Assembly: GCA_044892505.1 (NCBI GenBank)
Contig: CM097883.1
Span: 242,358,001-242,422,000 of the forward strand
Reading direction: 5' to 3'
DNA: 64,000 nt
Source: Schmidtea nova
Taxonomy: Eukaryota
Shown here: piece after piece, positions 9,227 to 27,241 of the stretch
How the letters are laid out: each line of letters opens with the position of its first letter
Position numbering within the stretch: the first letter of the stretch is position 1
Position numbers and translations under genes: made by a program
Notes under the pieces: generated by a model
Databases searched by the model: none
What the model was told of the DNA's origin: nothing
Seen by the model: only the letters and a program-made list of their open reading frames with translations

Positions 9227-12200
9227 TATTCCGTCCTTTGGTAGTAAAAAATGTTACTGGCATCTCCTTTTTTATAGTCGTTATGTCGTTACCATTGTAT
9301 GTTCCTTTTGCGTATGCGTGTACTTTTTCAACTAATGCGCCGAGTATTTCCAGTGCATGTTTACTATTCTCGAATTCCGGTAACAATTCTTTTGCTTTTT
9401 CTTGTATCGCATCTAGTCTAGCTTGGTATGGTGCTTCTGCTTTGAAGAGTGGTGTGAGTTTCCTGTTACTTTCTCTTTCTTTTTTCTCCAAAACCTGTTT
9501 GCATTTTTCGGGGTGGTTTAGGATTTTTACTAGTTCATCATACTCATTTACTATCGTCTGGTATTTCTCGTTAAAATTGTTTATGTCTTTGTATGTTATT
9601 AGTTTATCAAGTGGTTTCGCACACCATTTCCTAATCTTGTTGAATAAAGCCTCCTTCTCTTTATCGAATTTGTGTTCTTCTTCATTCTTTGTGATGTTTA
9701 TGTTCCCTCTGTCTAATAAGGTTAGTAATGTCTTTTGATCGCAAGTAAATTTCAAAAGATATCTTAACAGCGCGTTTTGTCCTTCGCTGTATACTTCGTT
9801 TATGTCTAAGACCCATGTATCATCTTCTGGTCGTTTCCATTTGATTAACTTACGGATCGTGTTGCATTTACCAATTTTTATTGCTTCTTTGATAATGTCT
9901 CCTTTTATTAATTCGTCTATTTCCCACGTGGAGTTAGCTATTATGTATTTCAGCATTGGTTGGTGAGAACTCCATATTACGTGATTTAGCACTGTTTTGT
10001 CTTCTCTATCTCGTTCTGTCCAACTGAAATGAGCCTTTATCAACAGATCTATCATTTCTTTATCTGCTTGGTGGATTGCGGCTGTCATTATTGGAGTTTC
10101 TTGTTCACGATTCCCCACGTCCAAGTTTTGGTTTGTTTCTTTTGCCATTTTTAAGAATTCTTTTGCTCTTTCAATGTTTTTACACTCTATCGCATTGTGT
10201 AAGGCTGGTTGTCCTCCTACATCTTTCAATAAGAGTATTTCAGGGATTTTTTCCAATAATTCAGAAATAATTGGTTCGGTTGGTAATCCTTGTGCGTAAC
10301 GGCTAATTATGTGTCTGATGTCCCTTGATATGCCTACTTCGTCTTTAACATGCCATCTTCCCATTATTTCTCTCGCCTTCAATATGATCTCTTTATTTCT
10401 GATTTCCTTTTGCCTTACTTCCGCTTTGTCGTCTTCGCTTGTGTTTGCTCTGAGCATATTTATCCTGGCTGTTTGTGATCTGGTTATTATTCGATTCTCT
10501 GGTGTTGTAGTTATTGTTTTAGGCACCTTCTTACATCTGCAAGTGTTTACATATATGGGTCGTATTAACGGTCGATTTATTAGCTTAACTTTGACATTAT
10601 TGTCCTTTTTGTATATAATTTCATAAGGTCCTCTTCCAGGTCTTTGGAGTTTCTTAACCGTTCCTGGTATTATTTCGGGAGTTTCTATTATCACCCAATC
10701 TCCTGGTTTTAGGTCGTTCGCTTTAACATTTTTCTTCTGGTCGTGTAAATCCTTATAACTTTCCTGATAAAATTTAATGTTAAGTTCTGCCGTCTTCCAT
10801 ATTTCCTGCATTCTTTCTTTGAATTTGGTTACGTAGTCGTCGTCTTCCATATATTGCGATAATGGTGGTTGATACTCTAAATCTATGGGCATGTTGCATT
10901 CTCTTCCATACATAAGTTGAAACGGGCTTAGTTTTGTTGCTGCATGTATCGACATGCGGTATGCCATTAAACATAATTTTATGTATTCGTCCCAATCGGT
11001 TTGATGTCTGCTGACGTAATTTGATAACATTCTAATCAATGTACCGTTGAATCTCTCTGTTTGTCCATTCGTTTGCGGGTGATATGGTGAAGTTCTCAAT
11101 TTTGCTATTCTGAAATAGTTGGTCACCTCGTTCAGTAACTCACTCATAAAGTTGGTTCCTTGGTCTGTGAGAATTTGTTTTGGAGTTCCGTATCTGCAAC
11201 ATATTTCTTCCACTAGAATTTTTGCTACGGTTTTTGCTTTTTGATCTTGCATGGCAAATGCTTCCGGGAATTTCGTCAGATAATCCGTTATTACCAATAT
11301 ATAAATATTTCCGTTTAAACTTTCTGGTAATGGTCCTATTACGTCCATTGCTATAGTTGTCATTGGCTCTGCTGGTATTGGCATTGGTTGTAGTGGGTTT
11401 TTCCATTTCTTCCCACTATCCTTTCTGGTTGCACAGGTTAGGCAATTTTTAATCCATTCTTTAATATCTTCTTCCATTGTTCGCCAATAATATTTTTGTC
11501 TCATACGATTTATTGTCTTTTTCTCTGACATATGCCCTCCTAATTTCCCATCATGGTATTGGATCATTATCTCTTTCCTTCTGTTTTCCGGTAAGCACAT
11601 CAATTTCTTTACCCCGTCTTGTATTAACAACCATTCTTTGCTTAATATATAGCGATGTTGATATTTTCCTATATGTTCCTTTAATTCCTTATTATCCTTG
11701 AATACCTCCATATTTCGAGATGTTAGGAACTCTATGATTTGTCCTAATTCTTTGTCTTCCTGCTGATCTCTCTTAAGCTCGCTAAAATCTAAATCTTCTG
11801 CTATTAATACACAAATTCGTTGTACATCAGGATCGGTTAGTTCCGGGAATGTCAGTCTTGACATACAGTCTGCATTCGCATTTGCTCTTCCTGATTTAAA
11901 TTTTATATCTGGTGAGTATTCCTGTAACTGCATTGCCCATCGCATTAATCTACTGGATGTTTCTTTGTGCTGTCCTAACCATACAAGCGGTTGGTGATCT
12001 GTTGTTATGCAGATGATGTGTCCCCATAATAAATATTTAAAATGTTTAATCGCTAATATAATCGCTAATGCTTCCCGTTCTGTCACTGAATAATTTTTCT
12101 CATGCTTTTTGAATGTCCGGCTATAATATCCGATTACACGTTCTTTTCCTTCATCATCGTATTGTCCTAATACTGCTCCCGCTGCATATCCGCTTGCATC

Positions 12201-15200
12201 TGTTGCAAGTAGGAATGGCTTCTTAAAGTCTGGGTGTACCAATATGGGTGCGGTTATCAGTTTATCTCTCAACGTTTCAAAGGCTGTTTGTTGTTCATCC
12301 CCCCATATGAATGATACATCTTTCTTTACCAGCTCTTGTATAGGTTTTGCGATTCCGGCGTAATCTTTAATAAACTTTCTATAGTATCCACATAGTCTGA
12401 GAAATTCTTGTATTTGGGTTATTGTTTTTGGTACTGGGCATTCTTTTACTTTGTCGATATTTCTAGGATCCGGTTCTTTTCCTTTTGCTGACACTATATA
12501 TCCTAAAAATGTAACCTTTTCTTTTGCCCAATCGCATTTGGATGGCTTGAGTTTTAACTTCCATTGTCTAAGCCTAACGAATACATCTCGAATATCCTGT
12601 ATGTGTTGTTCTAATGTACTAGAATAAATTAATAAATCGTCGATGTAGACCATGCACTGCTTTATTCCATGGGTGACGAAATTCATGCATCTCTGAAATG
12701 ATGCTGGTGCGTTTGTTAATCCAAATGGCATTTTTCGGAATTGATATAGGTCTCTACCGATGGTAAAGGCAGTTTTCTCTTTATCTTCTTCCTTCATTTT
12801 TATTTGCCAATATCCGCTTTTCAGATCTAACGACGTAAAATATGCTGCTCCTTGTAGTGTTAGTAGCATTTCGTTGATGTCCGGTAATGGATAAGTATCC
12901 CGTTTGGTCACGGTATTCAATCTTCGATAATCTATGCAAAATCTCTGTGTTCCGTCTTTCTTCTTTACCATTACCACTGGAAATTGCCAGGGTGAACAAC
13001 TTGGTTCGATTACTTCCGCATCCAACATTTTCTTCACTTCTGCTTCTGCTACTGCTTTCTGTGCTTCTGCTAATTTGTATGGTCTTAATGCAATTGGTGT
13101 TTCGTCTGTTAATGGTATTGTATGTAGTGTGACATCACATGTTCCTAGATCTAAATCGGATGCTGCAAATATATCCTTATACTCTATCATGAGTTTTTCT
13201 AACTGCTTCCTTTGATCCTCATTTAATAATTCACTATCAATATTCCAGGTTGGTTCTTTATCTTTCTCTGCTCCTTCTATTGGTAGTTCGATATCCATCA
13301 TTGGGGTTAATTTACCTAATCTTTCGTTTTCGTAGATTATTTTGTCCTCTTCATCGAAGTTTACTACGTTTATTGGGATTTCTCCATCGTCATTTATGTT
13401 GACTAGTCCTCTTGCCATTGGTAATGCTTTTCTTTTCTCGAATCTTTTGCTTGGTTCGAAAATCATATCCCCCTGGATTGTCGGATCTATTTTTACATAA
13501 CATATTTTTTCCTTTCTTGCGGGTATTATCATTTGCTTTGAACTTGTCACTTTGGCTTCTATTGCGCATATTTGTCCTGTGCGATCTTTCAGTCTCATTG
13601 TTCCGAGATCGATTACAATCTCTTTAAATAATGCTGGCATCAAATCTGTTCCGATAATGCAAGGTACGCTTAATGCTGGTATGACGGCTACGTACGTATC
13701 GATTTCTGTATTTAAGTGGCGTATTTTTACCCACCATCTTCCTGCTACTTCTACGATTTCTTTGCTACATGCAATTACGTGGACGTTTGTCCTTTCTATT
13801 TCCCGTCTTTGCTCTTGTGGTATCCATTTGATATCGATGGCGGAAATATTTGCTCCAGTGTCGATCATTGCTTCGATTTCTCTTCCGTTAATCTCTATTG
13901 TCGTGGTTAATACTGGACCTGTGTTTGATGACATTACTGCGATCGTGTGTGTATCTCCTTGTGGATCTACGCTTCTACATCTTCTCATTTTATAATCTTC
14001 TGGTATCATGGGGTATACATTTGTCATTGGCATCATTTGCATCGTGCTATTTTTTCCTCCTTGTAGTGGTTCTTGATACATTGTTGGTGGAGGTGCGTAA
14101 CATTTCCATGCGTCGGCTGGATTCTTTTCGATGTACTGTGGTGCTTGGTTCTTATACACTTGTCCTCCTTTATAGTCGTCATCGTCATCATCGTCGTCAC
14201 TCGAATCATTTTGGGTTTTATATCCTTTCATCCTCTCCCATAAACCTTTTCTTTCTCTCTTGAGCTGTTGTCTTGCTTGTTCGTCGTTCATTATCTTTTT
14301 AAATTTGCGTCCTACTTCTTCATCTGTTCCCTTCATTTTTGCTAATATCTTTAGGAGTCTTTTTATTCGGTGGATATCTTTTGAGTGACCGTGTAACACC
14401 ATCGTTTTCGCAAGGAATGGTAAAAATCCTACTACCATTTTCCAATTCACTTTCTTTTCTCTCTTGTAGATATCGAAACACGCTAGCATTTGCGTTATTA
14501 TCACTCTGACGATTTGTATTATTAATATAACCCCTAGTATTCCAGCCATCATTTGTCCGAATATCAGGAATCTTCCCCACATTGCTTTCATCATATTTTC
14601 TGTGGCTTTCTTGAAATGTGCTGGTGACAACAATAGTTCATAATTCGGTCCTTCTCGATAATCCGTTCCTCCCGTTATCGTTACGATATTTAACAGTAAT
14701 GCTTCTCTTCTCGCCGGGAATAATATATTCTGCCTTGCTGCTTCTAAATCTTTTGGGCTATATATTCCGTTGTTTGAGACATCTACGTCGCTGAATTGCC
14801 TATCCTTTGACAACTGCATTAGTTCGAATTCTCTTGGTGCTATTACTTCGGCTCTTCCTGGGAACATAACCCATTTACCATCTGGCTTCTGATAAAGCGG
14901 TCCGTATGCATTACTACAGTTGAATGGATTTGGTTCAAACCCTGGTGGATTGATGATTCTCGTCACCGGTTGAACGTATCGTACTTTTCCTTTGTAATCG
15001 ATTTCTAACTCATTTGTACAGGTTCCAGGTTTCAACTGTGTTGTTGCTGCTAGTGACGCGTGTGTCTTTTCGCAAATGTATACATACATTGCTTCTCCAA
15101 CCACTCTTCCGAAATGTCCTTCTCTCAGTGGTAATAATGGCATCGCGCTATCTGGATTCGTAATCGCTACGGCCAACTTTGTCTTTAATATTTCTCGATT

Positions 15201-18200
15201 CAGTATACAATCATTATTTATCAGATCGTAATACACTTTTTGTAATGAGGCTTGTCCTCTATGGAATAAGAAATCCATTTTATTATTCACATACAGGTGT
15301 AGTTTGATATCCATTGTGTCGATTTTGGGTTTCGCATTTGGTACTTCTTGTTTTGACACATATATTCCTGGGTAATTCGTTTCGTATACCGTTGTACTAC
15401 ACTTAAGGGTTGCTTTCCCTTTTATGAACCTCATTCCCACATCCTGATTTGTGGTTATCAATACTGTTGGTGTGGCTCTCATCTCTATCCGTTTTTCCCT
15501 ATGATCTGGTTTCAATTGTCTTTTATTCTCCAACGCTTCCTTGAGATGCTTTGCTCTAGCTTTGTCGTCATCGTCTTCTTCCTGGAATGTCTTTCCTTGA
15601 ATTTCGTCGAACTGTGCTCCTTGTAGCAGTTGTAATTGACATTCGTTCACCTTTGGTTTGTATACTAATGTTGACATTCCCGTTTGACACATGCTCCTGT
15701 CGATTTTACACATGGATAACGTTTTCATTTCTCCCGTTGTTGGTTCGAAGAATGCTTCATAGCTTTTTAATTCGACTATATACGTATCCATCACCACTAA
15801 GTTAGTTGCGGGTGTTCCGAATATCGGGTAGGTTTCTCCTTGACAATATCCTTCTCCTCCCGTAATCCTTCCTGCTACATAGTATGTTTGTTGCAGCATC
15901 ATTCCTGGTTTTCCTCTTATCTTGATTTTATCTCTTGTTGTTACTTCTCCATGTTTAAACAATGCTTCGCAGTCTTCTCCTTGTAACACGATTGGTTCTC
16001 TTTCCGTTCCTGGCATGACAATTGCTGAATAATGTCCTCTCCCGCAGTAGAATGCGAATCTCGTCTTCTGCACCTTACATTCATTCACCATTGTCTTTAT
16101 GAGTTCTGCTTCTTGATACACGTGGTACCATTGTTCCTTTTTAATCTTTTGTAACTCTACTGGAGTTGCATCTTTGCATTGCTCCGTACCTCTCAATGAA
16201 TACTTTTCTCCTAACTTCATTTGGTCGCAATCAAACACTTCGAATGCTGTTGCGCTATCGGTGCTAATCATCCATATCAACATCATCATTATTATAGAAC
16301 TCAAATTCATTGATGACTTCGCGTTTCCTGTTCCTGCTTGTTCTTTTTCTAACTCTTCCAATATTTTTTCGAATTTCTTTTTCATATTCTTTGCTTGCGT
16401 TTTCTTCTGGTTATTTTTTATAAATGTTTCCCATCCTCCTTTGTTAATGACGTATGGTTCTATTTCTCTGGCTATAATTTTTGCGGTATTTTTTATATGT
16501 CTCTCTAATGCAGTGGGTTTTGGTCGACCTCTACTCAGTGTCAACAGATTGTAGATCGTGTATGCAATGGCTATTATGTATTTATTATCCGTTTCCGCTC
16601 CTTCTGTCAGTTTCTTTATTAACGTAGTGGTTCCTTGCCAGTCTAAATGATTTGATTTCGTCTTTTCTTTTATGAATTCCGGTAAGATGGGTGCGATTGC
16701 GCTGTGTAGTGACTTCGCCTTTTCGCTTATCTCAGTTATCCGCCAGTATTTTCTTAATTCCGGATCAATTATTGCCAATATTTCCATTATTGTTTTCGAT
16801 ATCCATTCCTCCCCTTGACATATTGGTGTTGTCTCTTTTTCTTTTATCTCCGCAATTTTATTTAGTTTCCTTAAGCATAATTCCCATTGGTCTTGTCTCT
16901 TTTCATCCTTATTTCTGATGACTACATTCGCTGGGTCTGTCTTGGGTCTACCTCGAGGTCGTCTATCCATTCCTGTACCTGTTTCCACAAACCTTGTTGC
17001 CCGTCCGGTTTCCTCGGTGACATCTCTTGGTTCGTTAGCTCTTTCTTCTAACCATCTTTCCATTTCCTGGGTTAATTGTACATTTTCGGCATATGCTCCT
17101 CTTGTTTCATCTTCTGTCAAATCGTTTACTTCTTCTATTATTATCTCTTGTTCGACTTCTGTTTCTCCGGTGTTGGTTACTTGTATTGTCGTAGGTAATT
17201 CTTGTATTCTTTCGAAAATGTTATCGTCTTTTTCCTTTGTTAATTCGGTTAGCTCTTCTATCATATCGTCACTATCCGTTAAAATTTCGTCTACGTCGTA
17301 TGGTTGTGGTGGAGTACTTTCTCTGGTTCCTCTGGGTGTTGTCTCAGATCGTCTCGAACTTGTCCCTGGCGTTAGTACTGATTTCATCGGGCTCGGCGTA
17401 CTTATACTTCCGTGTGGTTTATGGTTTTCTTCTTTACGTTTCAATGGTTGCCCCGCTATTGCTTCCACTGTCAAGGTATTCATGAGATCTAATTGTGCTG
17501 GCGTTATTCCGATTTCCAAACTGTTATCTAATGATCGTCCTTGGTGTTGTAAATGGAATGGTGGTTCGTATCTCAATTTCTTTTTAATATCTCGAATTTT
17601 TTCTGCTATTCCTACCCAAAGCTCTTCCTTATCCTTGTTTGGATATATTATTCTTAAATGTACTTTTTGTGGAATTTCTTGCGAGAATTCTTGATTTCTC
17701 CATTTCCTAATTACGTGGTCTAGTTGTTCCGGGCACCACTCGTTAACTCTTTTATATTCCGCGATTGCTTTTGCTACTTTACGTAAACATGTTATATCCT
17801 CTCCATTTACCACGAAAAAATCTGCGAGACCCTTTATTACTTTTCTCTTACCGTGCGCATTAGTTTTTAATATTTCGACAAATTCTTCCGTTTTTTGCTT
17901 TTCCCTTTCTAACCACATAGCCGCGGTTTCTGGTCCATCTAGGTCTATCGGTGTAGCTTTCCTTGTCACCATGCAAACCCTTCCCATTTCTGGTTCGCAG
18001 TCATCTTCCATTCCTCTTTCATATTCTTCTTCATATTCTCCTTCTTTTGGTTCCCAACATTTTCCTTTCTTGTTCCATTGTTTTTCTACGGGTGTTCGTA
18101 TTCGTCTGTTGAGGTTGAGTTCTTCTAATACATTTTCCCACTCTGGCCAAATTCGCCAATTTCGATAAATTTCTACTATTTGTTGTAATTTGCGCACAAC

Positions 18201-21200
18201 TTCTTTCCGTCGTTCCCGTTCTCTTTTCTCATCTTTAGCAGTTTCTCTGGGTGTATCGTCCATTCTGATAACGTGGATGGTTTGGTGATTATCCCATATA
18301 CCGATTTTATATAGTCGTCTCTCATCGTGATCCCATAATACATGTTCGTTGTATTGTATGATTATGTCGTCTTCCCATTCGTCTTCTGGTTCTCTTTGCA
18401 CTAGTGTCTCGTTGATGACATTTATTAATTCTTTAATGGTGCAATCCGCTACCACTTCAATTTCTTTGGTGTCTTCATTAGGCAATTCTACTGAAATTTT
18501 TAGATCCGTTATTTTCCCTTGTCTAAACATTATTTTTCCCATTTTTGCGATTAATTTGTCGTGTGAGATCTGTGACCATCTCGTGTGGCTTGTGTCACGT
18601 ATGCACTCAATACATCGTTTCAATTTCTCGTATTCGCTTCTCATTAACTCTTTTCTATGTTTTTTGACTTGTGGTATGATTTGTTCTATCAGGGAATTTA
18701 GATTCTTTCGTAAGACTCGTTCTTTCTCGTATTCTAACCGGGGTTTTATTCTCCTTTCGAAACACATGTTTGCTTCCTTTGCAACTTCTTGTAGGTTCTC
18801 TTCTTCTTTTTCATCACATATTGATAACAGAGTTATTTCTCCTGGCCATATACCTGTTTCCACTAAGTGCGTTCTTTTCTTTACGAGTCTATTCTGCGAA
18901 TAGATGAATTTGTTTTTATATGAGCTCCCGAGCCTGTCTTCTACCCATCTGTAGATATCATCTGTAAATGGAGTTTTGATCCAGATTCTTGGTGTAGATG
19001 TATTTATTATTATTGAGATGGTGTAATTGAGGAGTGGTTCCTCTATTAATTTCCCTACGTATCGATTTAACATGTCTACTTCTCGGTCTTGTAACCATTC
19101 TTTGTAGTTCATTTGTAATAATGCTTTCATGAATTTCCGATATTGTTTCTTGTCCATGAATTCTTCGTTATATATTACTTCTAGCGAGTTATCTAATAAT
19201 TTCTGGATTTCATCTACTTTTATCTGTGTAGGTTCTGAGGTCTTTATTACTTCTCTCTCTTGGTTTTCGTCTTCGGATTCGTTTAATATGTCTCCTGCTA
19301 GGCTACTGATGTCACTATCTTCTTCCTCATCGGAAAACTCTCTGGTGGTATTTCTTAACATATTAATATGTGCTATTTGGTTCGTTTCCCCTTGTATGTT
19401 CTCCGTTGGTTCTGGTTCGTTTTTGTCAATCTCTGATGTTGGTTCACTCTTGTCCTCTATTACTTCGACCTTTCTCATTTTCTTTTCCAACTCGTCTATT
19501 TCTTTTAAACGTCTTCTTATCATTTTTCCTTTAAATATTCGACTGATTCGGGTTTCGTGACGCACTGGTGGTGGAATTTCTTCTGGTTCTATTTCTTTAA
19601 TAATCATCACGTTTCTTTTTGTTTCTACTACTCCCATGTTTTCCCATATATCCGTTAATTCCAACTTTACTTTTGGCGCACCTTCTATTTGTAGGAACGC
19701 TTCTCTGGGCAGTTTCGTTACTCCTAGAACCATCTGGTTTACTTTGTTGAATAATATTCCCACTTCTTCTTTTACGTTATACTGGAATCTAAACACGGAT
19801 TTGTTGGGCATGATTACCATCATTCTTCTTTTCCAAATCTCCCTTTTCTCTTCCTGGTTTGTCTCAGTTTCCACTTCCTTTTCTATTTCTTTTTCTACCT
19901 CCTCATCTTTTTGTACTATCTTTTTTTGACTTTTGTTGTCGGCTGGATTCGGGTCTATCGAATTCATTTCCAGTGTGGTTTCTTTCTCGCGAGTGTCTGT
20001 TTGGTTTGTTGCTCTTAGCATGTTAATTCTTAGAGGTTGTCGCTCTCTTTCTTGCTGTTTTTGTTCATCCTCTCTTTGTATTCTTGCCCATTCCTGAGCG
20101 TGTCGTGCCTGACTTTCTCGATTCAAACGTTCGTTTTCGCTTTCTATTTTTCTCATCATGCTAATTTGCTGTTGATTGGTTTGCGGATTTCCTCTCGTCG
20201 TATTGTTTATCAGTTCCGTCAACCTTTGAACTTCTTGCATCAAATGTATTTCTTTGGGGGTGGTTTTGTTCTGATTATTGTTATTATTGACTTGTTGGTT
20301 CCCATAATCTTGTCGGTTTACGGTATTTGTTTGATTTCCGTAATTTTGTCGGTTCCCATTACTCTGCCAGTTTCCTCGCTGATTACTTTTTTGTCCGCAA
20401 TTTCTTGAATAGTGACCAGGTCGTCCGCAATTAAAACAGATTATTGTAGAACATCTACTTTCCGAATGTCCTTTAACTCCACATTTTCCGCAATTCAAAT
20501 TTTGATAGCATTCTTGTTGCCAGTGTCCCAATTTTCCACATGTTTTACATTGTCTTGTTTGTCCTTGAGGGTTGTAATTGTTTTGGTTTCCAAAGTTCTG
20601 CACTTTATTTCCTTCATTCCTTCGTTGAGGGGGTGGTCGGTTTAATTGTTGCGAATTTGGAATGTGATTGTTGAGATTTACCTGTGGTTCGGTTTGTGCT
20701 GTGTCCATGGCTAAATAAATTCTGCCCTCACTTCCTATCATATGCAATTCGAATCGGTTAGCTGTTTCTAACGCTTGATCAATGGTCTTGCATCCTTGGC
20801 ATCCAACTTGCGCTCTTATGTCAGGTCTTCTTAGTCCTCCTATGAAGATAGCTGCCATTAACTCCTCGTTTATTGGACCTCCATCCTTGAATACCGATTT
20901 TGCTAATTTTTTCAGTTCACTCGCGTATACCGCATTAGATTCATTCATCTTTTGTTTCCTCATTGAGAATTCTATGAATGCCTCGCTTAGCACTTTATTT
21001 ATTCCAAATGTTTGTTGGAAAAAATCCTTTATCGCTGTCCAGCTTGTAGGTGGATTGGTACCATTTTTCGCTTCCAAATATAGGTCCAATGCACTATCTT
21101 TCAAATATAACTGAATTCTGCTTACTGTTGTTTCCGCTTTCCATTTGCATACTTCCACGAATATGCCAAATTCCTTTAAAAAGGTTTCTAATTTACTCGC

Positions 21201-21806
21201 ATCTCCGTTAAATGGTTCTCCTGAAAATTTATCCTTTATTTCTTCTCTTGGTTCACCCATTTCAATTCCGCTGTCTTGAGTTATTTTACTTTCGTTTCCT
21301 CTGGTTTCTAGTTCGTTGTTATGTTCGTCTTCTGTTTCACTCGAGCTTGAATCGCTTTCTGTTTCTCTTATTACTTCGTTATCCGATATTATACTTTCGT
21401 TATCACTCGCGTTGATTTCTATCTCTGGTTCTACCTCGTTTTCTACTTCTTCGATATTATCGTTGTTAGTTTCGTCGATTTCTCCTTCTTGTTCTATCTC
21501 GTGTTCTATTTCCTCGATATTATCGTCGATTTCTATTTCACTTGTTTGGTTCTCCTTGGGTTCCGCATGGTTTTCTTTGTTACTTGAGCAGTTGCTTGCT
21601 ACTGATAATTTATCGTTTTCGATAATCGATTTATCTCTTATTATTCTCCTCGCTTTACTCCCTTGTGGGTTCTTGTTGTTATCTTTGCCGGCTTTCTGCT
21701 TTTTTGCTGTTTTTGTTGTAGTACTAATTTTGTCTTTTTTGTTAATATTGCTGCCGACTTTCTTTTCCGTTGGCTTTACTACGACAATCTTTGCTCCTTT
21801 TCTCAA
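9213..21806 (-). CDS. 4197-aa polyprotein: Gag, UBL array, Bcl-2-like, Env, PR, RT, RNase H, IN, ankyrin
   Basis: Single uninterrupted ORF; domains listed separately. The TTG start is assigned by the ORF track; the first ATG is at 21260. Confidence 0.96.
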   Translation of the reverse strand: MRKGAKIVVVKPTEKKVGSNINKKDKISTTTKTAKKQKAGKDNNKNPQGSKARRIIRDKSIIENDKLSVASNCSSNKENHAEPKENQTSEIEIDDNIEEIEHEIEQEGEIDETNNDNIEEVENEVEPEIEINASDNESIISDNEVIRETESDSSSSETEDEHNNELETRGNESKITQDSGIEMGEPREEIKDKFSGEPFNGDASKLETFLKEFGIFVEVCKWKAETTVSRIQLYLKDSALDLYLEAKNGTNPPTSWTAIKDFFQQTFGINKVLSEAFIEFSMRKQKMNESNAVYASELKKLAKSVFKDGGPINEELMAAIFIGGLRRPDIRAQVGCQGCKTIDQALETANRFELHMIGSEGRIYLAMDTAQTEPQVNLNNHIPNSQQLNRPPPQRRNEGNKVQNFGNQNNYNPQGQTRQCKTCGKLGHWQQECYQNLNCGKCGVKGHSESRCSTIICFNCGRPGHYSRNCGQKSNQRGNWQSNGNRQNYGNQTNTVNRQDYGNQQVNNNNNQNKTTPKEIHLMQEVQRLTELINNTTRGNPQTNQQQISMMRKIESENERLNRESQARHAQEWARIQREDEQKQQERERQPLRINMLRATNQTDTREKETTLEMNSIDPNPADNKSQKKIVQKDEEVEKEIEKEVETETNQEEKREIWKRRMMVIMPNKSVFRFQYNVKEEVGILFNKVNQMVLGVTKLPREAFLQIEGAPKVKLELTDIWENMGVVETKRNVMIIKEIEPEEIPPPVRHETRISRIFKGKMIRRRLKEIDELEKKMRKVEVIEDKSEPTSEIDKNEPEPTENIQGETNQIAHINMLRNTTREFSDEEEDSDISSLAGDILNESEDENQEREVIKTSEPTQIKVDEIQKLLDNSLEVIYNEEFMDKKQYRKFMKALLQMNYKEWLQDREVDMLNRYVGKLIEEPLLNYTISIIINTSTPRIWIKTPFTDDIYRWVEDRLGSSYKNKFIYSQNRLVKKRTHLVETGIWPGEITLLSICDEKEEENLQEVAKEANMCFERRIKPRLEYEKERVLRKNLNSLIEQIIPQVKKHRKELMRSEYEKLKRCIECIRDTSHTRWSQISHDKLIAKMGKIMFRQGKITDLKISVELPNEDTKEIEVVADCTIKELINVINETLVQREPEDEWEDDIIIQYNEHVLWDHDERRLYKIGIWDNHQTIHVIRMDDTPRETAKDEKRERERRKEVVRKLQQIVEIYRNWRIWPEWENVLEELNLNRRIRTPVEKQWNKKGKCWEPKEGEYEEEYERGMEDDCEPEMGRVCMVTRKATPIDLDGPETAAMWLEREKQKTEEFVEILKTNAHGKRKVIKGLADFFVVNGEDITCLRKVAKAIAEYKRVNEWCPEQLDHVIRKWRNQEFSQEIPQKVHLRIIYPNKDKEELWVGIAEKIRDIKKKLRYEPPFHLQHQGRSLDNSLEIGITPAQLDLMNTLTVEAIAGQPLKRKEENHKPHGSISTPSPMKSVLTPGTSSRRSETTPRGTRESTPPQPYDVDEILTDSDDMIEELTELTKEKDDNIFERIQELPTTIQVTNTGETEVEQEIIIEEVNDLTEDETRGAYAENVQLTQEMERWLEERANEPRDVTEETGRATRFVETGTGMDRRPRGRPKTDPANVVIRNKDEKRQDQWELCLRKLNKIAEIKEKETTPICQGEEWISKTIMEILAIIDPELRKYWRITEISEKAKSLHSAIAPILPEFIKEKTKSNHLDWQGTTTLIKKLTEGAETDNKYIIAIAYTIYNLLTLSRGRPKPTALERHIKNTAKIIAREIEPYVINKGGWETFIKNNQKKTQAKNMKKKFEKILEELEKEQAGTGNAKSSMNLSSIIMMMLIWMISTDSATAFEVFDCDQMKLGEKYSLRGTEQCKDATPVELQKIKKEQWYHVYQEAELIKTMVNECKVQKTRFAFYCGRGHYSAIVMPGTEREPIVLQGEDCEALFKHGEVTTRDKIKIRGKPGMMLQQTYYVAGRITGGEGYCQGETYPIFGTPATNLVVMDTYIVELKSYEAFFEPTTGEMKTLSMCKIDRSMCQTGMSTLVYKPKVNECQLQLLQGAQFDEIQGKTFQEEDDDDKARAKHLKEALENKRQLKPDHREKRIEMRATPTVLITTNQDVGMRFIKGKATLKCSTTVYETNYPGIYVSKQEVPNAKPKIDTMDIKLHLYVNNKMDFLFHRGQASLQKVYYDLINNDCILNREILKTKLAVAITNPDSAMPLLPLREGHFGRVVGEAMYVYICEKTHASLAATTQLKPGTCTNELEIDYKGKVRYVQPVTRIINPPGFEPNPFNCSNAYGPLYQKPDGKWVMFPGRAEVIAPREFELMQLSKDRQFSDVDVSNNGIYSPKDLEAARQNILFPARREALLLNIVTITGGTDYREGPNYELLLSPAHFKKATENMMKAMWGRFLIFGQMMAGILGVILIIQIVRVIITQMLACFDIYKREKKVNWKMVVGFLPFLAKTMVLHGHSKDIHRIKRLLKILAKMKGTDEEVGRKFKKIMNDEQARQQLKRERKGLWERMKGYKTQNDSSDDDDDDDDYKGGQVYKNQAPQYIEKNPADAWKCYAPPPTMYQEPLQGGKNSTMQMMPMTNVYPMIPEDYKMRRCRSVDPQGDTHTIAVMSSNTGPVLTTTIEINGREIEAMIDTGANISAIDIKWIPQEQRREIERTNVHVIACSKEIVEVAGRWWVKIRHLNTEIDTYVAVIPALSVPCIIGTDLMPALFKEIVIDLGTMRLKDRTGQICAIEAKVTSSKQMIIPARKEKICYVKIDPTIQGDMIFEPSKRFEKRKALPMARGLVNINDDGEIPINVVNFDEEDKIIYENERLGKLTPMMDIELPIEGAEKDKEPTWNIDSELLNEDQRKQLEKLMIEYKDIFAASDLDLGTCDVTLHTIPLTDETPIALRPYKLAEAQKAVAEAEVKKMLDAEVIEPSCSPWQFPVVMVKKKDGTQRFCIDYRRLNTVTKRDTYPLPDINEMLLTLQGAAYFTSLDLKSGYWQIKMKEEDKEKTAFTIGRDLYQFRKMPFGLTNAPASFQRCMNFVTHGIKQCMVYIDDLLIYSSTLEQHIQDIRDVFVRLRQWKLKLKPSKCDWAKEKVTFLGYIVSAKGKEPDPRNIDKVKECPVPKTITQIQEFLRLCGYYRKFIKDYAGIAKPIQELVKKDVSFIWGDEQQTAFETLRDKLITAPILVHPDFKKPFLLATDASGYAAGAVLGQYDDEGKERVIGYYSRTFKKHEKNYSVTEREALAIILAIKHFKYLLWGHIICITTDHQPLVWLGQHKETSSRLMRWAMQLQEYSPDIKFKSGRANANADCMSRLTFPELTDPDVQRICVLIAEDLDFSELKRDQQEDKELGQIIEFLTSRNMEVFKDNKELKEHIGKYQHRYILSKEWLLIQDGVKKLMCLPENRRKEIMIQYHDGKLGGHMSEKKTINRMRQKYYWRTMEEDIKEWIKNCLTCATRKDSGKKWKNPLQPMPIPAEPMTTIAMDVIGPLPESLNGNIYILVITDYLTKFPEAFAMQDQKAKTVAKILVEEICCRYGTPKQILTDQGTNFMSELLNEVTNYFRIAKLRTSPYHPQTNGQTERFNGTLIRMLSNYVSRHQTDWDEYIKLCLMAYRMSIHAATKLSPFQLMYGRECNMPIDLEYQPPLSQYMEDDDYVTKFKERMQEIWKTAELNIKFYQESYKDLHDQKKNVKANDLKPGDWVIIETPEIIPGTVKKLQRPGRGPYEIIYKKDNNVKVKLINRPLIRPIYVNTCRCKKVPKTITTTPENRIITRSQTARINMLRANTSEDDKAEVRQKEIRNKEIILKAREIMGRWHVKDEVGISRDIRHIISRYAQGLPTEPIISELLEKIPEILLLKDVGGQPALHNAIECKNIERAKEFLKMAKETNQNLDVGNREQETPIMTAAIHQADKEMIDLLIKAHFSWTERDREDKTVLNHVIWSSHQPMLKYIIANSTWEIDELIKGDIIKEAIKIGKCNTIRKLIKWKRPEDDTWVLDINEVYSEGQNALLRYLLKFTCDQKTLLTLLDRGNINITKNEEEHKFDKEKEALFNKIRKWCAKPLDKLITYKDINNFNEKYQTIVNEYDELVKILNHPEKCKQVLEKKERESNRKLTPLFKAEAPYQARLDAIQEKAKELLPEFENSKHALEILGALVEKVHAYAKGTYNGNDITTIKKEMPVTFFTTKGRNNAHT
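9900..10220 (-). other. Ankyrin-repeat block fused downstream of integrase (approximate bounds)
   Basis: GQPALHNAI, QETPIMTAAI, DKTVLNHVI repeats. Confidence 0.85.
10600..11600 (-). other. Integrase (HHCC zinc finger, DDE core, GPY/F motif; no chromodomain seen); approximate bounds
   Basis: YHDGKLGGH..CLTC; AMDVIGPLP; TDQGTNF; NGQTERFN; GPYEI. Confidence 0.95.
11860..13060 (-). other. Reverse transcriptase and RNase H (approximate bounds)
   Basis: YIDD at 12636-12647; TDASGYAAGAVLGQ; NYSVTEREALA; TDHQPL. Confidence 0.97.
13310..13920 (-). other. Aspartic protease followed by a degenerate dUTPase-like linker (approximate bounds)
   Basis: AMIDTGANIS (DTG at 13854-13862) and IIGTDLM. The linker IIPARKE..MIFEPS..ARGLV..IPINVVN resembles the PR-RT spacer of many gypsy elements. 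Confidence 0.85.
14200..16310 (-). other. env: Envelope glycoprotein, chuvirus/gB-like class III fusogen (approximate bounds)
   Basis: Internal signal MNLSSIIMMMLIWMISTDSATA then FEVFDC; CKVQKTRFAFYCG; LHLYVNNKMDFL; C-terminal MWGRFLIFGQMMAGILGVILII TM. These match my recollection of chuvirus-type glycoproteins. Confidence 0.8.
16415..16900 (-). other. Bcl-2-like domain (approximate bounds)
   Basis: EIEPYVINKGGWETFIK is BH2-like (compare HTWIQDNGGWDAFVE); a degenerate BH1-position helix NKYIIAIAYTIYNLL precedes it at plausible spacing. Confidence 0.7.
17450..19810 (-). other. Array of 3-4 ubiquitin-like domains with helical spacers (approximate bounds)
   Basis: LKISVELPNEDTKEIEV..CTIKEL..IIQYNEHVL..LYKIGI..TIHVI and VHLRIIYPN..KIRDIKKKL..LQHQGRSL follow the ubiquitin pattern. 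Confidence 0.65.
20396..21260 (-). other. gag: Gag capsid-like domain and three CCHC zinc knuckles
   Basis: FNGDASKLETFLKEF..LYLKDSALDLY..FIGGL; CKTCGKLGHWQQEC, CGKCGVKGHSESRC, CFNCGRPGHYSRNC. Confidence 0.93.
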
Positions 21807-22381
21807 GGGGATTACTTTTGTATACTCAATTTTCTTGTCCTATCTCTTATCGTGTTCTGATTCTTCTTGCTTGATTGATTGATTTGATTGATTTGTATAT
21901 CTAAAATACAAAGGTCCTCAACGATACATTATTGTTATCGTCGCGCTTTTATTCCCTTTCTTTCGGGATTACTTATTACTGGGTTTTCATTATTTCCCAA
22001 TTCCCAGATTCCCCTTTATTTTTAGTCTATTTAAATTATCTATAGACTGGTCACAATTATCTATTTATGTCGTAATAATTATCTATACTTTATAAATCAA
22101 TTACTTTTCCCACAGTTTCCCAATTTATTGGTCGCTCGAGCGCTCTAATTCCCTGAGTCTTTCTGACTCGTTTATCGTTATTTTATCATCTTTATTCATT
22201 ATTCCCTGTTAGCAATTGTTTTACTCATTCTGCCGGTTGCTCCGGTCAGCTCAAATCTCTACTATTCTCCTTGCATGCTTTATTTAAGGTTGCATAATCA
22301 GCTTTACTCGCATTCTCTTAACTACTAGTGCGCACTACTCTAAATCTCGTCGACGATTACACTATGGGTCTATATTCCCTC

Positions 22382-22934
22382 TGTAGTGGCACGGTTCATT
22401 CATATATTAAATTACAAAAAATTAAAAATTGTTTTGTAAAAAACTTGTTATTTAAAAATTGTAGTTTAAAAATTAATTTTATAAAAAGTTGTTTAAAACT
22501 ATCAAAAGTTGTAAATAAAAATAAATATTTGTTATCTTAATTTAAAAGTGTTTTCTTAAATGGCTTCCAGTATTTCATTCATTAATATTGAATATTTGAC
22601 ATTTAATCACTGCAAACAATCGGATTATACCAATAGCGAAGAAGTCATTCAATTACAATTCAATGATCTCTTTGGATTACTAAGAACTGAGGCCAAGCTT
22701 AATAATAATCTTTCATCAAAGGACGATTTTGAAAGGCTATTCAAAACATGGATTCCATCTGTTGATAATCAGTATGAACAGACAATTAATGAGCCATTCC
22801 ATGATGCGATTTTATTCCACAGTACTCAAAGTCGACTCAGTAGAAGTTTAACAAATTTAAAGATAAAAACAGATACTGACTCAAACATAATGCTAGAAGG
22901 TTTCGAGAAGGCGCACTACGCCCGAAACACTTCA
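22382..22934 (+). repeat. 5' LTR of the nested element (553 bp)
   Basis: Starts TGTAGTG, ends CACTTCA; its last 147 bp (22788-22934) repeat at 25585-25731 with one mismatch seen. Confidence 0.88.
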
Positions 22935-24323
22935 TTGGTGTCAGAAGTGAAAGAAAGCCACACCTCCTGGCTAAGAAAAATTGTAAGTAATTTTTATATG
23001 AGTGTAATTTTTGCCGCTCCATTGGTTCCCCCTCGCATTAGCCCAGTCCATTTAAGGGAAAACGGGACAACCACTTTCATCAATAGCCAACACACCTTTT
23101 TATCTCCTCACACTTTTATCCCTCATAAATCAGATCACGCCATCCACTTCCGTTTCGGTATGAGATTTTTCAGTGTCCGCATCTCCACACCATCTTACGA
23201 TGCATTTTCACAGGCAGTTTGCCAAATTTTTAAACAACATTCATATGATTTTTACGTCACACAAAACGGCATTATATTAAATTCTCTGTCTGACATCTCA
23301 GAGACCGTCATCGTACAAGTTAACCTAAGAGCACGGGGAGGCATGAAAGACGGGGACACGGATACCAACGACATTGAAATTCACCCACACCCATTCACGG
23401 CTCCTTCGTTCTTTCTGGACGCAGATAAATCCCCAAAAGCGTGGCTCATTTTGGTCAACATCGCACTCGAAGAAAGTGGACGTTTCACGCCCTACAAAAA
23501 ATTCTCCGCTTTAATTATATCTCTCCCAGCGGAAATCCTATCAAAAATAGCGCATCTTACCGAACAACTTAGTAACAGCACAAACCCCTATCTGGCACTT
23601 AAATCAGCCATCACCGAACTTTATCTAGAACCTGTGAAAGACGTTTTTGAACGTGTTTTCAAGGAGCAATCATTGGGATCAGACCTCCCTTCGGTTTTTT
23701 TGAAACGCTCCATAGAAAGCCTCGAACGCCTCAAAGTAGGCATCACTAAGGATGATACAGTACTCCGTCATTCTTTCCTTTCCGCACTTCCAATCCAGAC
23801 GAGAGCGATTCTTTCAGTTGCGGAAACAACCTCTTTAGACAAATTAGCGGAAATGGCCGATAAGATCTCTGCGATCTCCTTAGCACCTAAACCTTGTCTT
23901 TCCTTAACTACAGAAGCACATCCACCAGTTACATCACACTCAACGAGCACTCCCTCGACCATGATCGAAGAGAGGCTCACGGCAGCCCTCGAAAACTTAG
24001 GTAACAGACTGAGCCGTTTGGAGGACCACCAGACCAAATGCCGCAGGAAACGTTTTTTTAACAGCAAATCTCCTAAGAGAACTCCATCCGCAGGTGGTAA
24101 ACTAATTTGTCGCCTACACTTAAAATTCCAGAAAAACGCGAGATGGTGCGCAATCGGCTGCGCTTGGCGCAATCGTTCGAACGACTGCAAGAACTCAGAT
24201 GTGTGGATATACCATGACAGGTTTCGCACTGACGCAAGACGTTGCCTTCAAGGTTGCAAACATTTCACAAATTTTGCGAACCAATCATTAACCACCGAAG
24301 AATTCAACTCCTCAAAAAACTGA
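22560..24323 (+). CDS. gag: Nested Gag with an N-terminal ubiquitin-like domain ending LRARGG
   Basis: SPKAW..KKFSAL..NPYLALKSAI..FLSALP..LDKLAEMADKI; two H..F..AR.C..GC motifs; A AAA AAC slippery heptamer at 24314-24320 just before the stop. Confidence 0.88.
   Translation: MASSISFINIEYLTFNHCKQSDYTNSEEVIQLQFNDLFGLLRTEAKLNNNLSSKDDFERLFKTWIPSVDNQYEQTINEPFHDAILFHSTQSRLSRSLTNLKIKTDTDSNIMLEGFEKAHYARNTSLVSEVKESHTSWLRKIVSNFYMSVIFAAPLVPPRISPVHLRENGTTTFINSQHTFLSPHTFIPHKSDHAIHFRFGMRFFSVRISTPSYDAFSQAVCQIFKQHSYDFYVTQNGIILNSLSDISETVIVQVNLRARGGMKDGDTDTNDIEIHPHPFTAPSFFLDADKSPKAWLILVNIALEESGRFTPYKKFSALIISLPAEILSKIAHLTEQLSNSTNPYLALKSAITELYLEPVKDVFERVFKEQSLGSDLPSVFLKRSIESLERLKVGITKDDTVLRHSFLSALPIQTRAILSVAETTSLDKLAEMADKISAISLAPKPCLSLTTEAHPPVTSHSTSTPSTMIEERLTAALENLGNRLSRLEDHQTKCRRKRFFNSKSPKRTPSAGGKLICRLHLKFQKNARWCAIGCAWRNRSNDCKNSDVWIYHDRFRTDARRCLQGCKHFTNFANQSLTTEEFNSSKN
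22936..22949 (+). promoter_or_regulatory. PBS of the nested element (tRNA-Leu-like)
   Basis: TGGTGTCAGAAGTG one nt after the LTR end; matches the known tRNA-Leu PBS TGGTGTCAGAAGTGGGAT. Confidence 0.9.
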
Positions 24324-24439
24324 TCACCCCGTTTCTTCTTGCGGCAGAAGTAGGCGGTAATCATCCACACAATTTTTTTCTCAAACTCTTCTCACCTAGT
24401 TTTTCTTTTCTCTCATCTCCTTCTCTCAATTCTCCCGAA

Positions 24440-25589
24440 AATTCACTTTCTGATAGATACCGGATCGAGTCTTTCACTACTCCCCATTTCTTTCAGCGCT
24501 GATAACAACACAACTTATACACTCCGCGCTGCTAATGGCAATTACATCACAACCCGCGGTTGTCTACCAGTCACGTTCCGCATTGAGAACCTACCGGACG
24601 AGTATACTTGGACTTTCTCCATTGCCGAGATAAGCTGTCCCATATTGGGGATGGATTTCCTATCTGCCAACCATTTGTTAATAGATTGCTCGAAACACCG
24701 TCTTGCTAAATGTAACGATCCAACCCTCCCCACATCTTCTGCTATTTTGAGCACAACTCCTGATAATTCTAACACTTCACCCCATGACTCCGGTCATTCG
24801 AGATTCATCAATGAACAACTGAACCTCCACCCTCAACTATTAAAACGCTCAAATGATTCAAAATCCTCAAATCCCAGCTACTACCATAGAATTGAAACTT
24901 CTCCTTCTCTCCCTCTCCGAGAACGTTTCAGACCACTGTCAGGAGACAAACTCAATTTCCTTCGAGAAGAAATCCAAAATCTCTTAAATACTGGTGTTAT
25001 TCGACGTTCAGCCTCACCATGGGCCTCACCAGTACACATAGTTGCCAAACATGACGGTAAATTCAGGGCATGTGGGGACTATCGTCGTCTAAACGCGATT
25101 ACCATACATGATTCGTACCCCATGCCCCTCATCAATGACGTCTTATCTAGATTGTCACATGCTTCAGTTTTTTCGACACTGGATTTGGTGAAAGCATACC
25201 ACCAAATACCGGTACATGACATGGATGTGCCTAAAACTGCGATAATAACTCCCTTAGGCCTATTCGAGTATTTACGTATGCCATTCGGACTGAGGAACGC
25301 AGCGCAAACGTTCCAACGTCATATAGATGGCGTTCTTTCTAAATTAGATTTCGCCGTTGCCTACGTCGACGACATTATCGTCGGATCTTCCTCACAGGCA
25401 CAACATTACGAAGATTTACAGAAAGTTTTAGAAGCCTTAGCCAATAATAATCTTCAAATTAATCCTTCGAAATGTTGTTTCTTTCGTCCTGAAGTACAAT
25501 TTCTGGGGCATTTCGTCTCTGGGTCTGGCATCCGCCCCCTACCATCTCGGTTGAAATCCATCAATGATTTTCCTATTCCAGGAAAATGA
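24440..25589 (+). pseudogene. pol: Nested pol fragment: protease and RT, truncated
   Basis: FLIDTGSSLSLLP in frame with ORF 24645-25589; FRACGDYRRLN, LDLVKAYHQIP, MPFGLRNAAQTFQ, YVDDI. Breaks off into the 3' LTR remnant. Confidence 0.93.
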
Positions 25590-25731
25590 GCCATTCCATG
25601 ATGCGATTTTATTCCACAGTACTCAAAGTCGACTCAGTAGAAGTTTAACAAATTTAAAGATAAAAACAGATACTGACTCAAACATAATGCTAGAAGGTTT
25701 CGAGAAGGCGCAATACGCCCGAAACACTTCA
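25585..25731 (+). repeat. 3' LTR remnant of the nested element
   Basis: 147-bp copy of 22788-22934, followed by TSD CCCTC. Confidence 0.9.
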
Positions 25732-25772
25732 CCCTCTATTACTATTTATCCGGATATCTCTATAGTTCACTA

Positions 25773-26027
25773 TGGCTCTTCTGGCCTCAATTTAATATCT
25801 CAACTGGCTCTATTGGCCTTAATTAACGTCTCAACTGGCTCTATTGGCCTCAATTTTATCTCTCATACGGCTCTATTGGCCTCAATTTAATCTCTTAAAT
25901 GGCTCTATTGGCCTCAATTTAATCTCTCAAACGGCTCTATAGGCCTCAATTTAATCTCTCATATGGCTCTATTGGCCTCAATTTAATCTCTCATATGGCT
26001 CTATTGGCCTCAATTTAATCTCTCCAT
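25773..26027. repeat. Tandem array, about 8 copies of a 32-bp unit (TGGCTCTATTGGCCTCAATTTAATCTCTCATA)
   Basis: Read directly; adjacent copies with no unique spacers. Confidence 0.92.
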
Positions 26028-26066
26028 AACGCCTAGCTAGGTCATTCAATATGGCTCATTGGCCTC

Positions 26067-26300
26067 AACCCTTTTTTTCAAAGGACAAACCGCTAATAAC
26101 CCTTTGTTTCAAGGGACAAATCTCATAACCCTTTGTTTCAAGGGACAAATCTCATAACCCTTTGTTTCAAGGGACAAATCTCCCAACCCTTTGTTTCAAG
26201 GGACAAATCTCATAACCCTTTGTTTCAAGGGACAAATCTCCTAACCCTTTGTTTCAAGGGACAAATCTCCTAACCCTTTGTTTCAAGGGACAAATCTCCT
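26067..26300. repeat. Tandem array, about 8 copies of a 29-bp hairpin unit (AACCCTTTGTTTCAAGGGACAAATCTCAT)
   Basis: Read directly; each unit contains the CCCTT..AAGGG inverted repeat. Confidence 0.93.
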
Positions 26301-26779
26301 AACTTTGCTTAACCGGTTAATTATAATTCTTAACTTCGCTAGCGATTAATATTTCTCAGCTGAGTTATAACTACTTCTATGCGAGCTGACTATGCACCTT
26401 TTATTCTCTCAAAATTGTCATTTATCTCTCTATTCTATCGTGCTTATTTACTGATCAGTCTGCTTCAACTTTTTATTTATTTTTCTCTATGCGCGCTTTA
26501 CTCCATCACGATTTCCCTATCTCTCTCCCCAACCAAAATATACAAAAAGATCGCGTTGGTCCATTAATGCAGGATGTGGTGATCAATCACTTCACAAAAA
26601 CTTTCCAACATTTGCGATGGGCCCCTTTCTATACACCCTGACTAGGTTGATCAATCGGTACCTCCCAATGGATTCTTATCGGACTACTTTGTAGTAGCTC
26701 AAAAATTATTTAAATACAACAATTGTACCCATGATTTCATCATTAGTAAACCAATAAAACTCCATTTAAACATCATTTA

Positions 26780-27241
26780 TTATAAATATACAGTAATTTT
26801 ATCAGCTATTCTCAGGTCGCACATAGGACATAGGTCGCACTTGCTGGCACATATTCTACAAAAACGAAAATGTCCGCAAGGTAAAAACATAATTTGTATC
26901 TCGCTATCCTCACATATATAGCACTGTCGGTATTTTTTCGCTGCTTCTACCCCCTGCGCCCTCCATCGATTGTATGTCGGGGTTAATTGTTGTTCTATTT
27001 GCCTGCATCTAATGTTTAGCTCCGCATTTTCTAATCGTGCTCTGTACCATTTGTAGCGGGTTTTTATGTCGATTTTTCTTATTCTTTCTGTTATCTTTAT
27101 TAATTCATCCGTCTCCTCAGTCTGTGTTGTGGGTTCCTGAAATTCAATCTCTCTAAATCGGTTTATTTTCTTGCCAATCGTTTCTAATGTATCGCTTTCT
27201 GTGTTGAGAAATTCTTCGATTTCTTTCAGTTTTTCCTCCAT
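26780..27241 (-). CDS. Accessory protein with a C-terminal IAP/MDM2-type RING (probable E3 ligase)
   Basis: CYICEDSEIQIMFLPCGHFRFCRICASKCDLCPMCDLRIADKITVYL at the extreme C-terminus; helical N-terminus; no BIR domain seen. Confidence 0.9.
   Translation of the reverse strand: MEEKLKEIEEFLNTESDTLETIGKKINRFREIEFQEPTTQTEETDELIKITERIRKIDIKTRYKWYRARLENAELNIRCRQIEQQLTPTYNRWRAQGVEAAKKYRQCYICEDSEIQIMFLPCGHFRFCRICASKCDLCPMCDLRIADKITVYL

Follow-up and report, generated by a model that had tools for sequence, protein, structure and literature searches.

The 64,000-nucleotide stretch of Schmidtea nova DNA analyzed here (the window) carries, at 26780..27241 on the minus strand, a 153-aa accessory ORF that ends in a RING domain and contains no BIR, as established from the ORF list, Pfam, a search for copies and pN/pS. 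Judged from its sequence, this ORF is a real, old gene family under purifying selection and not a clipped IAP, since a second family of elements has, as its leading ORF, a homologue that also lacks a BIR and whose 27% identity extends over the N-terminal domain. Our best explanation, which we hold at about even chances, is that of a conserved accessory gene in a Burro-like LTR element, likely with its own spliced and polyadenylated mRNA, and likely encoding a dimeric RING ligase-type protein of low activity.

The RING ORF and the Element That Carries It

The translation of the ORF ends in ...CPMCDLRIADKITVYL*. An earlier note on this DNA had described a C-terminal RING with a hydrophobic tail, an AATAAA at the stop and no BIR, and had proposed an HMM search as a check. 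All these features were borne out by Pfam and by the sequence: PF13920 (zf-C3HC4_3) matched the ORF at 42 bits (E 8e-11, cut-off 27), and Pfam found no BIR in it or in any window ORF scanned. Residues 1-104 (26930..27241, minus) form a predicted helical domain without Pfam family, homologous to the N-terminus of the corresponding protein of family 2 (see below). The C3HC4 RING (C107-C141) and a 12-residue tail with a conserved aromatic, located by Pfam and alignments, occupy 26783..26923 (minus) and show a non-Arg residue at the linchpin position. Models of the protein (pLDDT 56-57) consist of short helices, a long helix at 59-104 and the RING. In family 1 the tail reads mostly I-I/V/M-V-Y-L, the Thr in the ITVYL of the window being a minor variant. 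An AATAAA at 26776..26781 (minus), a candidate polyA signal, overlaps the RING stop. The same overlap occurs in 65/68 family-1 copies and 9/9 copies of lineage 3, and family 2 has an AATAAA at most 40 nt from the RING stop in 18/18 copies, the RING region being AT-rich with 7 AATAAA per 1260 nt.

The PBS (27548..27567, minus) is complementary to the 3' end of tRNA-Pro(TGG), as matched to tRNA genes of the genome (899 pattern matches genome-wide, identity assigned by ARAGORN). At G000:C1:459.61-459.66 Mb, genes for tRNA-Pro(TGG), which supplies the primer of the element, form a tandem 308-bp array. The RING ATG is 306 nt downstream of the PBS, close to the earlier estimate of about 300 nt, and the RING does sit between PBS and gag as the first long ORF after the PBS. 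Its description as the first ORF on the genomic RNA is borne out for long ORFs after the PBS only, as 7 ATGs lie within this leader and the LTR, ahead of the PBS, contains two ORFs (~159 and ~198 aa) in most copies, each after a YAG and without Pfam match. Because of these LTR ORFs, the rank of the RING gene on the genomic RNA depends on the transcription start. In the window copy they are broken (28042-29100, minus), with a remnant at 28042-28290.

Positions 1-29806 form a single minus-strand LTR element, with a 5' LTR of ~2.2 kb (27574..29806, minus, inner end approximate) and part of the 3' LTR, found by LTR comparison, at 1..792 (minus). The LTRs (27583-29806 and the sequence up to 792) share 99.55% identity over 2225 nt, and the window copy is therefore young. 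The inner ~280 nt of the LTR (window 27546-27827) are conserved in all lineages and in family 2, and contig depth over them is about 10-30x that of the flanks; this stretch is probably a cis element common to many more families. The LTR-to-LTR span of 29.8 kb includes a copy-specific 3.35-kb insertion, a nested LTR-element fragment with gag-like sequence and part of an RT (22382..25731, plus; Pfam and copy comparison). Bounded by a 5-bp TSD (CCCTC), it splits RING from gag here and is absent in 19/19 other copies, in which the RING stop lies ~1.8-2.4 kb upstream of the first gag ATG. The nested element has a left LTR of ~550 nt and a PBS of its own, and a deletion within it runs from RT into the right LTR. 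Tandem repeats of 32 nt and 29 nt, also present in other copies, occupy 25728..26332 in the RING-gag spacer.

The ORF list and Pfam further delimit a Gag-Env(Monjiviricetes fusion)-PR-RT-RH-IN-Ank polyprotein of 4015 aa (9213..21260, minus), in which Pfam places the env-like fusion domain PF24664 at residues 1926-2266, in frame between gag and RVP/RT. In the window copy the polyprotein is broken at 9213-9226 and 5149-5237 (minus); in another copy it continues to the end of the 121-aa ORF. Pfam gave no match for BCL2-like or SUMO-like motifs in the polyprotein, one stretch of which looks BH2-like by eye. A TRAF-like accessory ORF (RING, zf-TRAF, MATH; 2814..4190, minus), identified by Pfam and the acceptor scan, has a T-rich YAG just upstream. 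Left of the window, past a 500-N gap, 4 kb duplicate window positions 7880-11947 at 99.98%, as an assembly artefact or a tandem copy, and a host ABC transporter exon (ABC_membrane_2) lies at 37578-38372 (plus).

Conservation and Selection

A genome search returned at least 150 copies of the RING ORF at 86-100% identity. Internal stops were absent from 142 of the best 150, a sample biased by its ranking on protein score; in a less biased set picked by non-coding leader DNA (window included), 24/30 copies were intact and 6/30 broken. A figure of 4/25 intact among copies of lower protein score was rejected as an alignment artefact, direct translation giving 61/66 intact copies, a count that leaves out 7 loci without a start match. 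Lineage 3, at 75% identity, comprises about 90 copies, and its whole ORF is BIR-less.

Selection was measured as pairwise pN/pS, with 95% intervals obtained by codon bootstrap. The RING ORF gave 0.20 (95% 0.14-0.28; 62 distinct copies), its N-terminus 0.20 and its RING 0.21; the control frames gave 1.39 (+1), 1.16 (+2) and 1.22 (reverse). Values were 0.24 for the RING-only protein of family 2, 0.18 for the window versus lineage 3 at a pS of 0.72, and 0.05 for gag. The earlier note had named a lack of conservation among copies as what would overturn its reading; the copies are conserved, and the pN/pS of 0.20 indicates purifying selection.

A Second Family and Further Homologues

Family 2, found with BIR and PF13920 profile searches of the genome, is a multi-copy LTR family of ~25 kb (e.g., G000:C1:253262000-253290000). 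It shares its PBS with the window element, and its first ORF encodes a 160-aa RING protein without BIR; then come a protease/ankyrin ORF, a TRAF, a separately encoded 389-aa protein with both BIR and RING, and coiled-coil ORFs. The two copies examined (one of them with Pfam) showed no ORF for gag, RT or integrase, and family 2 is likely a non-autonomous cargo element. Beyond one of its copies, a run of ORFs (a P-loop ATPase, an integrase-like protein) resembles, by eye, a Polinton-like element.

The RING-only proteins of families 1 and 2 are 27% identical end to end. Their N-termini alone align with z of 7-15 (hhalign 93%), a score reached by 0/1000 shuffles. The match of the 389-aa BIR-RING protein to the RING-only proteins is confined to the RING, and tblastn of the BIR-RING ORF on the autonomous element also matched only the RING; BIR is absent from the window element and from the examined parts of three other copies of the autonomous family. 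Among 1.84 billion representatives, we found a further full-length BIR-less homologue (P0003, 160 aa, E 3e-37), with identities of 29% and 37%, the 149 other matches listed beside it having far lower scores or covering mainly the RING. Word-index protein searches returned no true relative of the RING ORF, and a whole-protein cluster search only generic PF13920 clusters. As regards the host, a cluster of three IAP-type RING exons of host-like character, with long tails, lies at G000:C2:315.68-315.85 Mb; one of them has a BIR exon 7 kb upstream, and these RINGs share 39-46% identity with the BIR-RING gene of family 2.

It is extremely improbable that the ORF is a non-functional relic or a recently truncated IAP. 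Some copies are indeed broken, 6/30 in the less biased set, but pN/pS is 0.18-0.24 in three lineages, B-IAP aligns with the RING only and not with the N-terminus, and the BIR-less form is common to proteins only 27-37% identical. The pN/pS values and the N-terminal homology already refute this reading, unless selection ended very recently.

Relationships and Catalytic Residues of the RING

All 8 zinc ligands show the XIAP/cIAP spacing, and the alignment to cIAP2/XIAP is gap-free. In sequence searches the best PDB matches were cIAP2, XIAP, cIAP1, BIRC7 and MYLIP, with cIAP2/XIAP first and MYLIP close. Fold searches with low-confidence models (pLDDT 56-57) tied IDOL, XIAP, BIRC7, MEX3C and MDM2; with the whole model the best Z was 4.5, and no family was found for the N-terminus. 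The RING is 26-41% identical to the IAP-type RINGs of the genome and 33-41% to a non-IAP-like host RING, and a RING tree of 12 rows had no starred branch. The designation IAP-type in the earlier note agrees with the ligand spacing and with the tail aromatic in XIAP/cIAP register, but it is not specific, in view of the MYLIP/IDOL ties and of identities that bring the RING no closer to IAPs. Given these identities to IAP-type RINGs and a tree without resolved branch, an IAP origin is possible. By the BIR criterion the protein is not an IAP; its ligands and tail would place it in the PF13920 class of dimeric C-terminal RINGs.

In IAP and MDM2 dimers, the tail aromatic packs on the partner RING. 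Here this residue, which follows the last Cys by 11 positions, is Tyr in 77/77 copies of family 1 and lineage 3 and Phe in 18/18 of family 2, and the tail is 12-13 residues long versus 16-19 in the IAP-type RINGs of the genome. An Ile and a Pro, which we take to be E2-contact residues, are kept in 77/77 family-1 and lineage-3 copies, the Pro being lost in family 2 and P0003. At the linchpin position (after the last Cys), 95 copies have Asn (76), Lys (17), Asp (1, the window copy) or Arg (1). The residue is Asp in P0003, non-Arg in 95/96 sequences overall, and Arg in the B-IAP-like gene and four host RINGs. In RNF38, changing the linchpin to Asn, Asp and Lys lowered E2~Ub binding 42-, 28- and 12-fold, and active ligases without an Arg linchpin exist, e.g., XIAP with Tyr (PMC12326332). 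As Asn, Lys and Asp are weak in RNF38, we infer a weak, E2-selective or partner-dependent ligase; the non-Arg linchpin and the loss of Pro could equally mean no ligase activity.

Splicing Signals and Access to gag

A T-rich YAG (27245..27256, minus), which stops 3 nt short of the RING ATG, constitutes a predicted 3' splice acceptor. It is found in 73/74 family-1/lineage-3 copies, in which CAG and TAG interchange and the next three bases vary; in family 2, the YAG directly abuts the RING ATG in 22/22 copies. A T-rich YAG lies at most 6 nt from 11/18 ORF starts (17 distinct), versus 39/802 other ATGs and a non-coding background of 624/8135 positions (7.7%), with an acceptor threshold chosen after inspecting the sequences and with counts that represent non-independent events, the copies being related.

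Comparison of copies also indicates a predicted gag acceptor (21901..21912, minus); the first in-frame ATG of gag follows after 640 nt. A strong acceptor occurs in the window as well as in 18/18 copies that possess a gag start. Over the 526-653 nt that follow it, 17/18 copies have no ATG in any frame and the window has one, for an expectation of 4.0-5.1; in each of 5 copies, 0/500 shuffles reach zero. At least 20 ATGs separate the RING stop from the gag acceptor. The earlier claim that gag cannot be reached by simple scanning is supported by these ATGs. The RING ATG itself lies behind 7 ATGs, has its own acceptor and is therefore not a scanning-first gene.

Upstream of gag, an extension of 193 codons (21261..21839, minus) is open in the gag frame without in-frame ATG. 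It is open over 155-197 codons in most copies, is basic then acidic, and has a conserved ATT codon near its start. Indels keep the frame in 16/18 copies, and pN/pS is 0.43 (0.28-0.70) versus 0.73-0.79 in shifted frames, with overlapping intervals. As the leader is mostly open in the gag frame, with frame-keeping indels and this pN/pS, these data hint at translation of the extension from a non-AUG start. An AUG brought by a spliced leader was rejected as the start of the extension, the acceptor being out of phase, with a stop conserved 61 nt downstream.

Near the LTR/PBS, no splice donor was conserved across family-1 copies, the best (GTAAGT) occurring in 4/9 copies. AATAAA is present in 8/9 intergenic spacers, barely above shuffles (mean 5.7; 331/5000). 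A search for retro-copies of a spliced RING mRNA gave 7 matches versus 2 in controls, none aligned to the RING ORF, and among the joints listed from four runs of DNA-like contigs none corresponded to a minus-strand intron at 27245 or 21901. A joint at 27243-27336 was rejected as splice evidence, being off the acceptor and without a genomic copy with that junction. Since acceptor-like sites precede the RING, most accessory ORFs and the ATG-depleted gag leader, both proteins, RING and gag, probably derive from spliced RNAs, produced either in cis or by spliced-leader trans-splicing.

Proposed Mechanism and Alternatives

We propose that full-length RNA from the 5' LTR would be processed at a nested series of 3' acceptors, each ORF having one ahead of it. 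Splicing to the first of them, together with the polyA signal at the RING stop, would yield a short RING mRNA, and skipping of the RING acceptor to 21901 a gag mRNA with an ATG-free leader. From the arrangement of sites, this production of a short RING mRNA and a separate gag mRNA appears quite likely. RINGs of cIAP, XIAP and MYLIP dimerise via the pre-RING helix and the tail aromatic; by analogy, there is good reason to expect that the RING described here would bind two zinc ions and dimerise in the same way. We lean towards a weak, E2-selective or partner-dependent ligase that may act on a host restriction, silencing or death-signalling protein. The helical N-terminal domain is predicted to pick the host target, for which host IAPs are one candidate, though a doubtful one.

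The same protein could also be expressed in an operon-like manner, with the host spliced leader trans-spliced to each acceptor and this reaction coupled to upstream polyadenylation. Spacers of 40-263 nt separate the same-strand ORFs, each of which has an acceptor and, in most cases, an AATAAA. The spacers have no GTRAG donor, no conserved donor was found near the LTR/PBS, and the distance from the RING acceptor to the ATG (0 or 3 nt) always preserves phase 0. Such spacers, which fall within the 300-bp operon criterion of PMC12582326, the similar flatworm operons and the spliced-leader trans-splicing reported in Schmidtea (PMC10899757) make this reading viable. We nevertheless consider it unlikely: a cis donor outcompetes the spliced leader, cis-splicing from LTR to acceptor is documented in one flatworm (PMC4558846), and the AUG that terminates the spliced leader would be out of frame with gag and, in subfamily 1a, directly followed by a stop. 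Because cis donors outcompete the spliced leader, cis-splicing from a donor in the LTR or leader remains our main reading and is clearly favoured over trans-splicing.

Regarding the protein itself, and close to the idea in the earlier note of heterodimers with host IAPs, an MDMX-like partner or decoy with low ligase activity of its own could form a tail heterodimer with an Arg-linchpin IAP RING, either of a host IAP or of the family-2 B-IAP, and alter the stability or substrates of that IAP. RING-RING contact between IAPs leads to degradation. Non-Arg linchpins in 95/96 sequences across three divergent groups, together with an invariant tail aromatic, are consistent with this role, as are the RING-only protein kept by family 2 beside a full BIR-RING IAP with Arg, the host IAP-type RING exons of the genome, and the RING heterodimers of one inactive and one active partner named in PMC12326332. 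However, no BIR was found in the autonomous window copy or in the examined parts of three others, the RING resembles IAPs no more than it does MYLIP or a further host RING, and the IAP-type tails of the genome have 16-19 residues versus 12-13 here. Also, the N-terminal domain is constrained as strongly as the RING, which suggests a separate binding function for it, and we regard the decoy as a tentative possibility. The two preceding ideas might be combined in an operon-style element with the spliced leader added onto the acceptor before every ORF, gag included, and with a first cistron, common to the autonomous and the gag/RT-less families, whose product is a pseudo-ligase of MDMX type acting in trans to retune IAP RINGs; this seems quite unlikely. 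Finally, the protein could serve outside the ubiquitin system, as a zinc-stabilised scaffold on the RNA or particle of the element itself. A first position kept in autonomous and non-autonomous families, with an adjacency to the PBS that would be explained even without gag/RT, and degenerate catalytic residues agree with such a role, but the presumed E2-contact Ile and Pro are kept in 77/77 family-1 and lineage-3 copies and the other cargo is ubiquitin/apoptosis themed (TRAF, IAP), making it very unlikely in our view.

Under our preferred reading, that of a conserved accessory gene for a low-activity RING ligase-type protein, autonomous elements that lack any BIR still keep a second RING gene family, distinct from the BIR-RING cargo, whose catalytic residue is degenerate. 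Such elements may thus tune ubiquitin signalling rather than simply block caspases. Also, the acceptor layout predicts exact junctions (27245, 21901, 4194, 2703) for a 30-kb retroelement of about ten genes in which gag is not the first.

Comparison with Known Systems

The RING shares its ligand spacing, extreme C-terminal location, pre-RING helix and aromatic tail residue with XIAP, cIAP1/2, BIRC7, MYLIP/IDOL and MDM2/MDMX. Unlike these proteins, it is linked to no BIR, FERM or p53-binding module but to a helical domain of ~100 residues without family; its linchpin is Asn, Lys or Asp, and the family-1 tail is one residue shorter. Large DNA viruses (ascovirus, iridovirus, pithovirus, baculovirus IAP2/3) also carry small RING-only proteins, with a helical N-terminus and a terminal RING in 130-210 aa, but the match is limited to the RING (TM 0.3) and the carrier here is an LTR retroelement. 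Complex retroviruses express accessory genes from multiply spliced RNAs, with one acceptor per ORF and a single LTR-driven transcript; here, in contrast, gag is preceded by an accessory gene and apparently requires an acceptor too.

The literature covered gave no account of a BIR-less RING ORF after a PBS or of Burro splicing, but Grohme 2018 and Lee et al. 2026 or their supplements may hold one. The closest elements in print are Burro/GYPSM1 of planarians, whose cargo comprises BIR, BCL2-like, MATH and ankyrin domains (PMC6431247). Based on their published description and layout rather than on the Burro1-4 sequences, the window element resembles them in its size of ~30 kb, an env-like fusion in frame between gag and PR, ankyrin, MATH/TRAF, tandem repeats and accessory ORFs. 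It differs in that no BIR was found in it, and section 7 of the same article mentions neither a stand-alone BIR-less RING after the PBS nor nested acceptors. A Dugesia element also has an accessory ORF upstream of ORF1, but of MATH/TRAF and not RING type (PMC6431247). The RNA of BURRO1 is PIWI-repressed (PMC8532177), and the B-IAP of Burro1, a BIR-RING protein, is reported to protect planarian stem cells (PMC13465017). B-IAP likewise is retrotransposon-borne with a PF13920-class RING, but it combines this RING with a BIR (PMC13465017). The window protein lacks both the BIR and the Arg linchpin and differs in its N-terminus; the B-IAP-like gene of the present genome is the separate 389-aa ORF of family 2, with a RING 35-39% identical. 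The ubiquitin/apoptosis cargo of Burro elements is thus already known, and the BIR-less RING placed after the PBS would represent a further variant of it.
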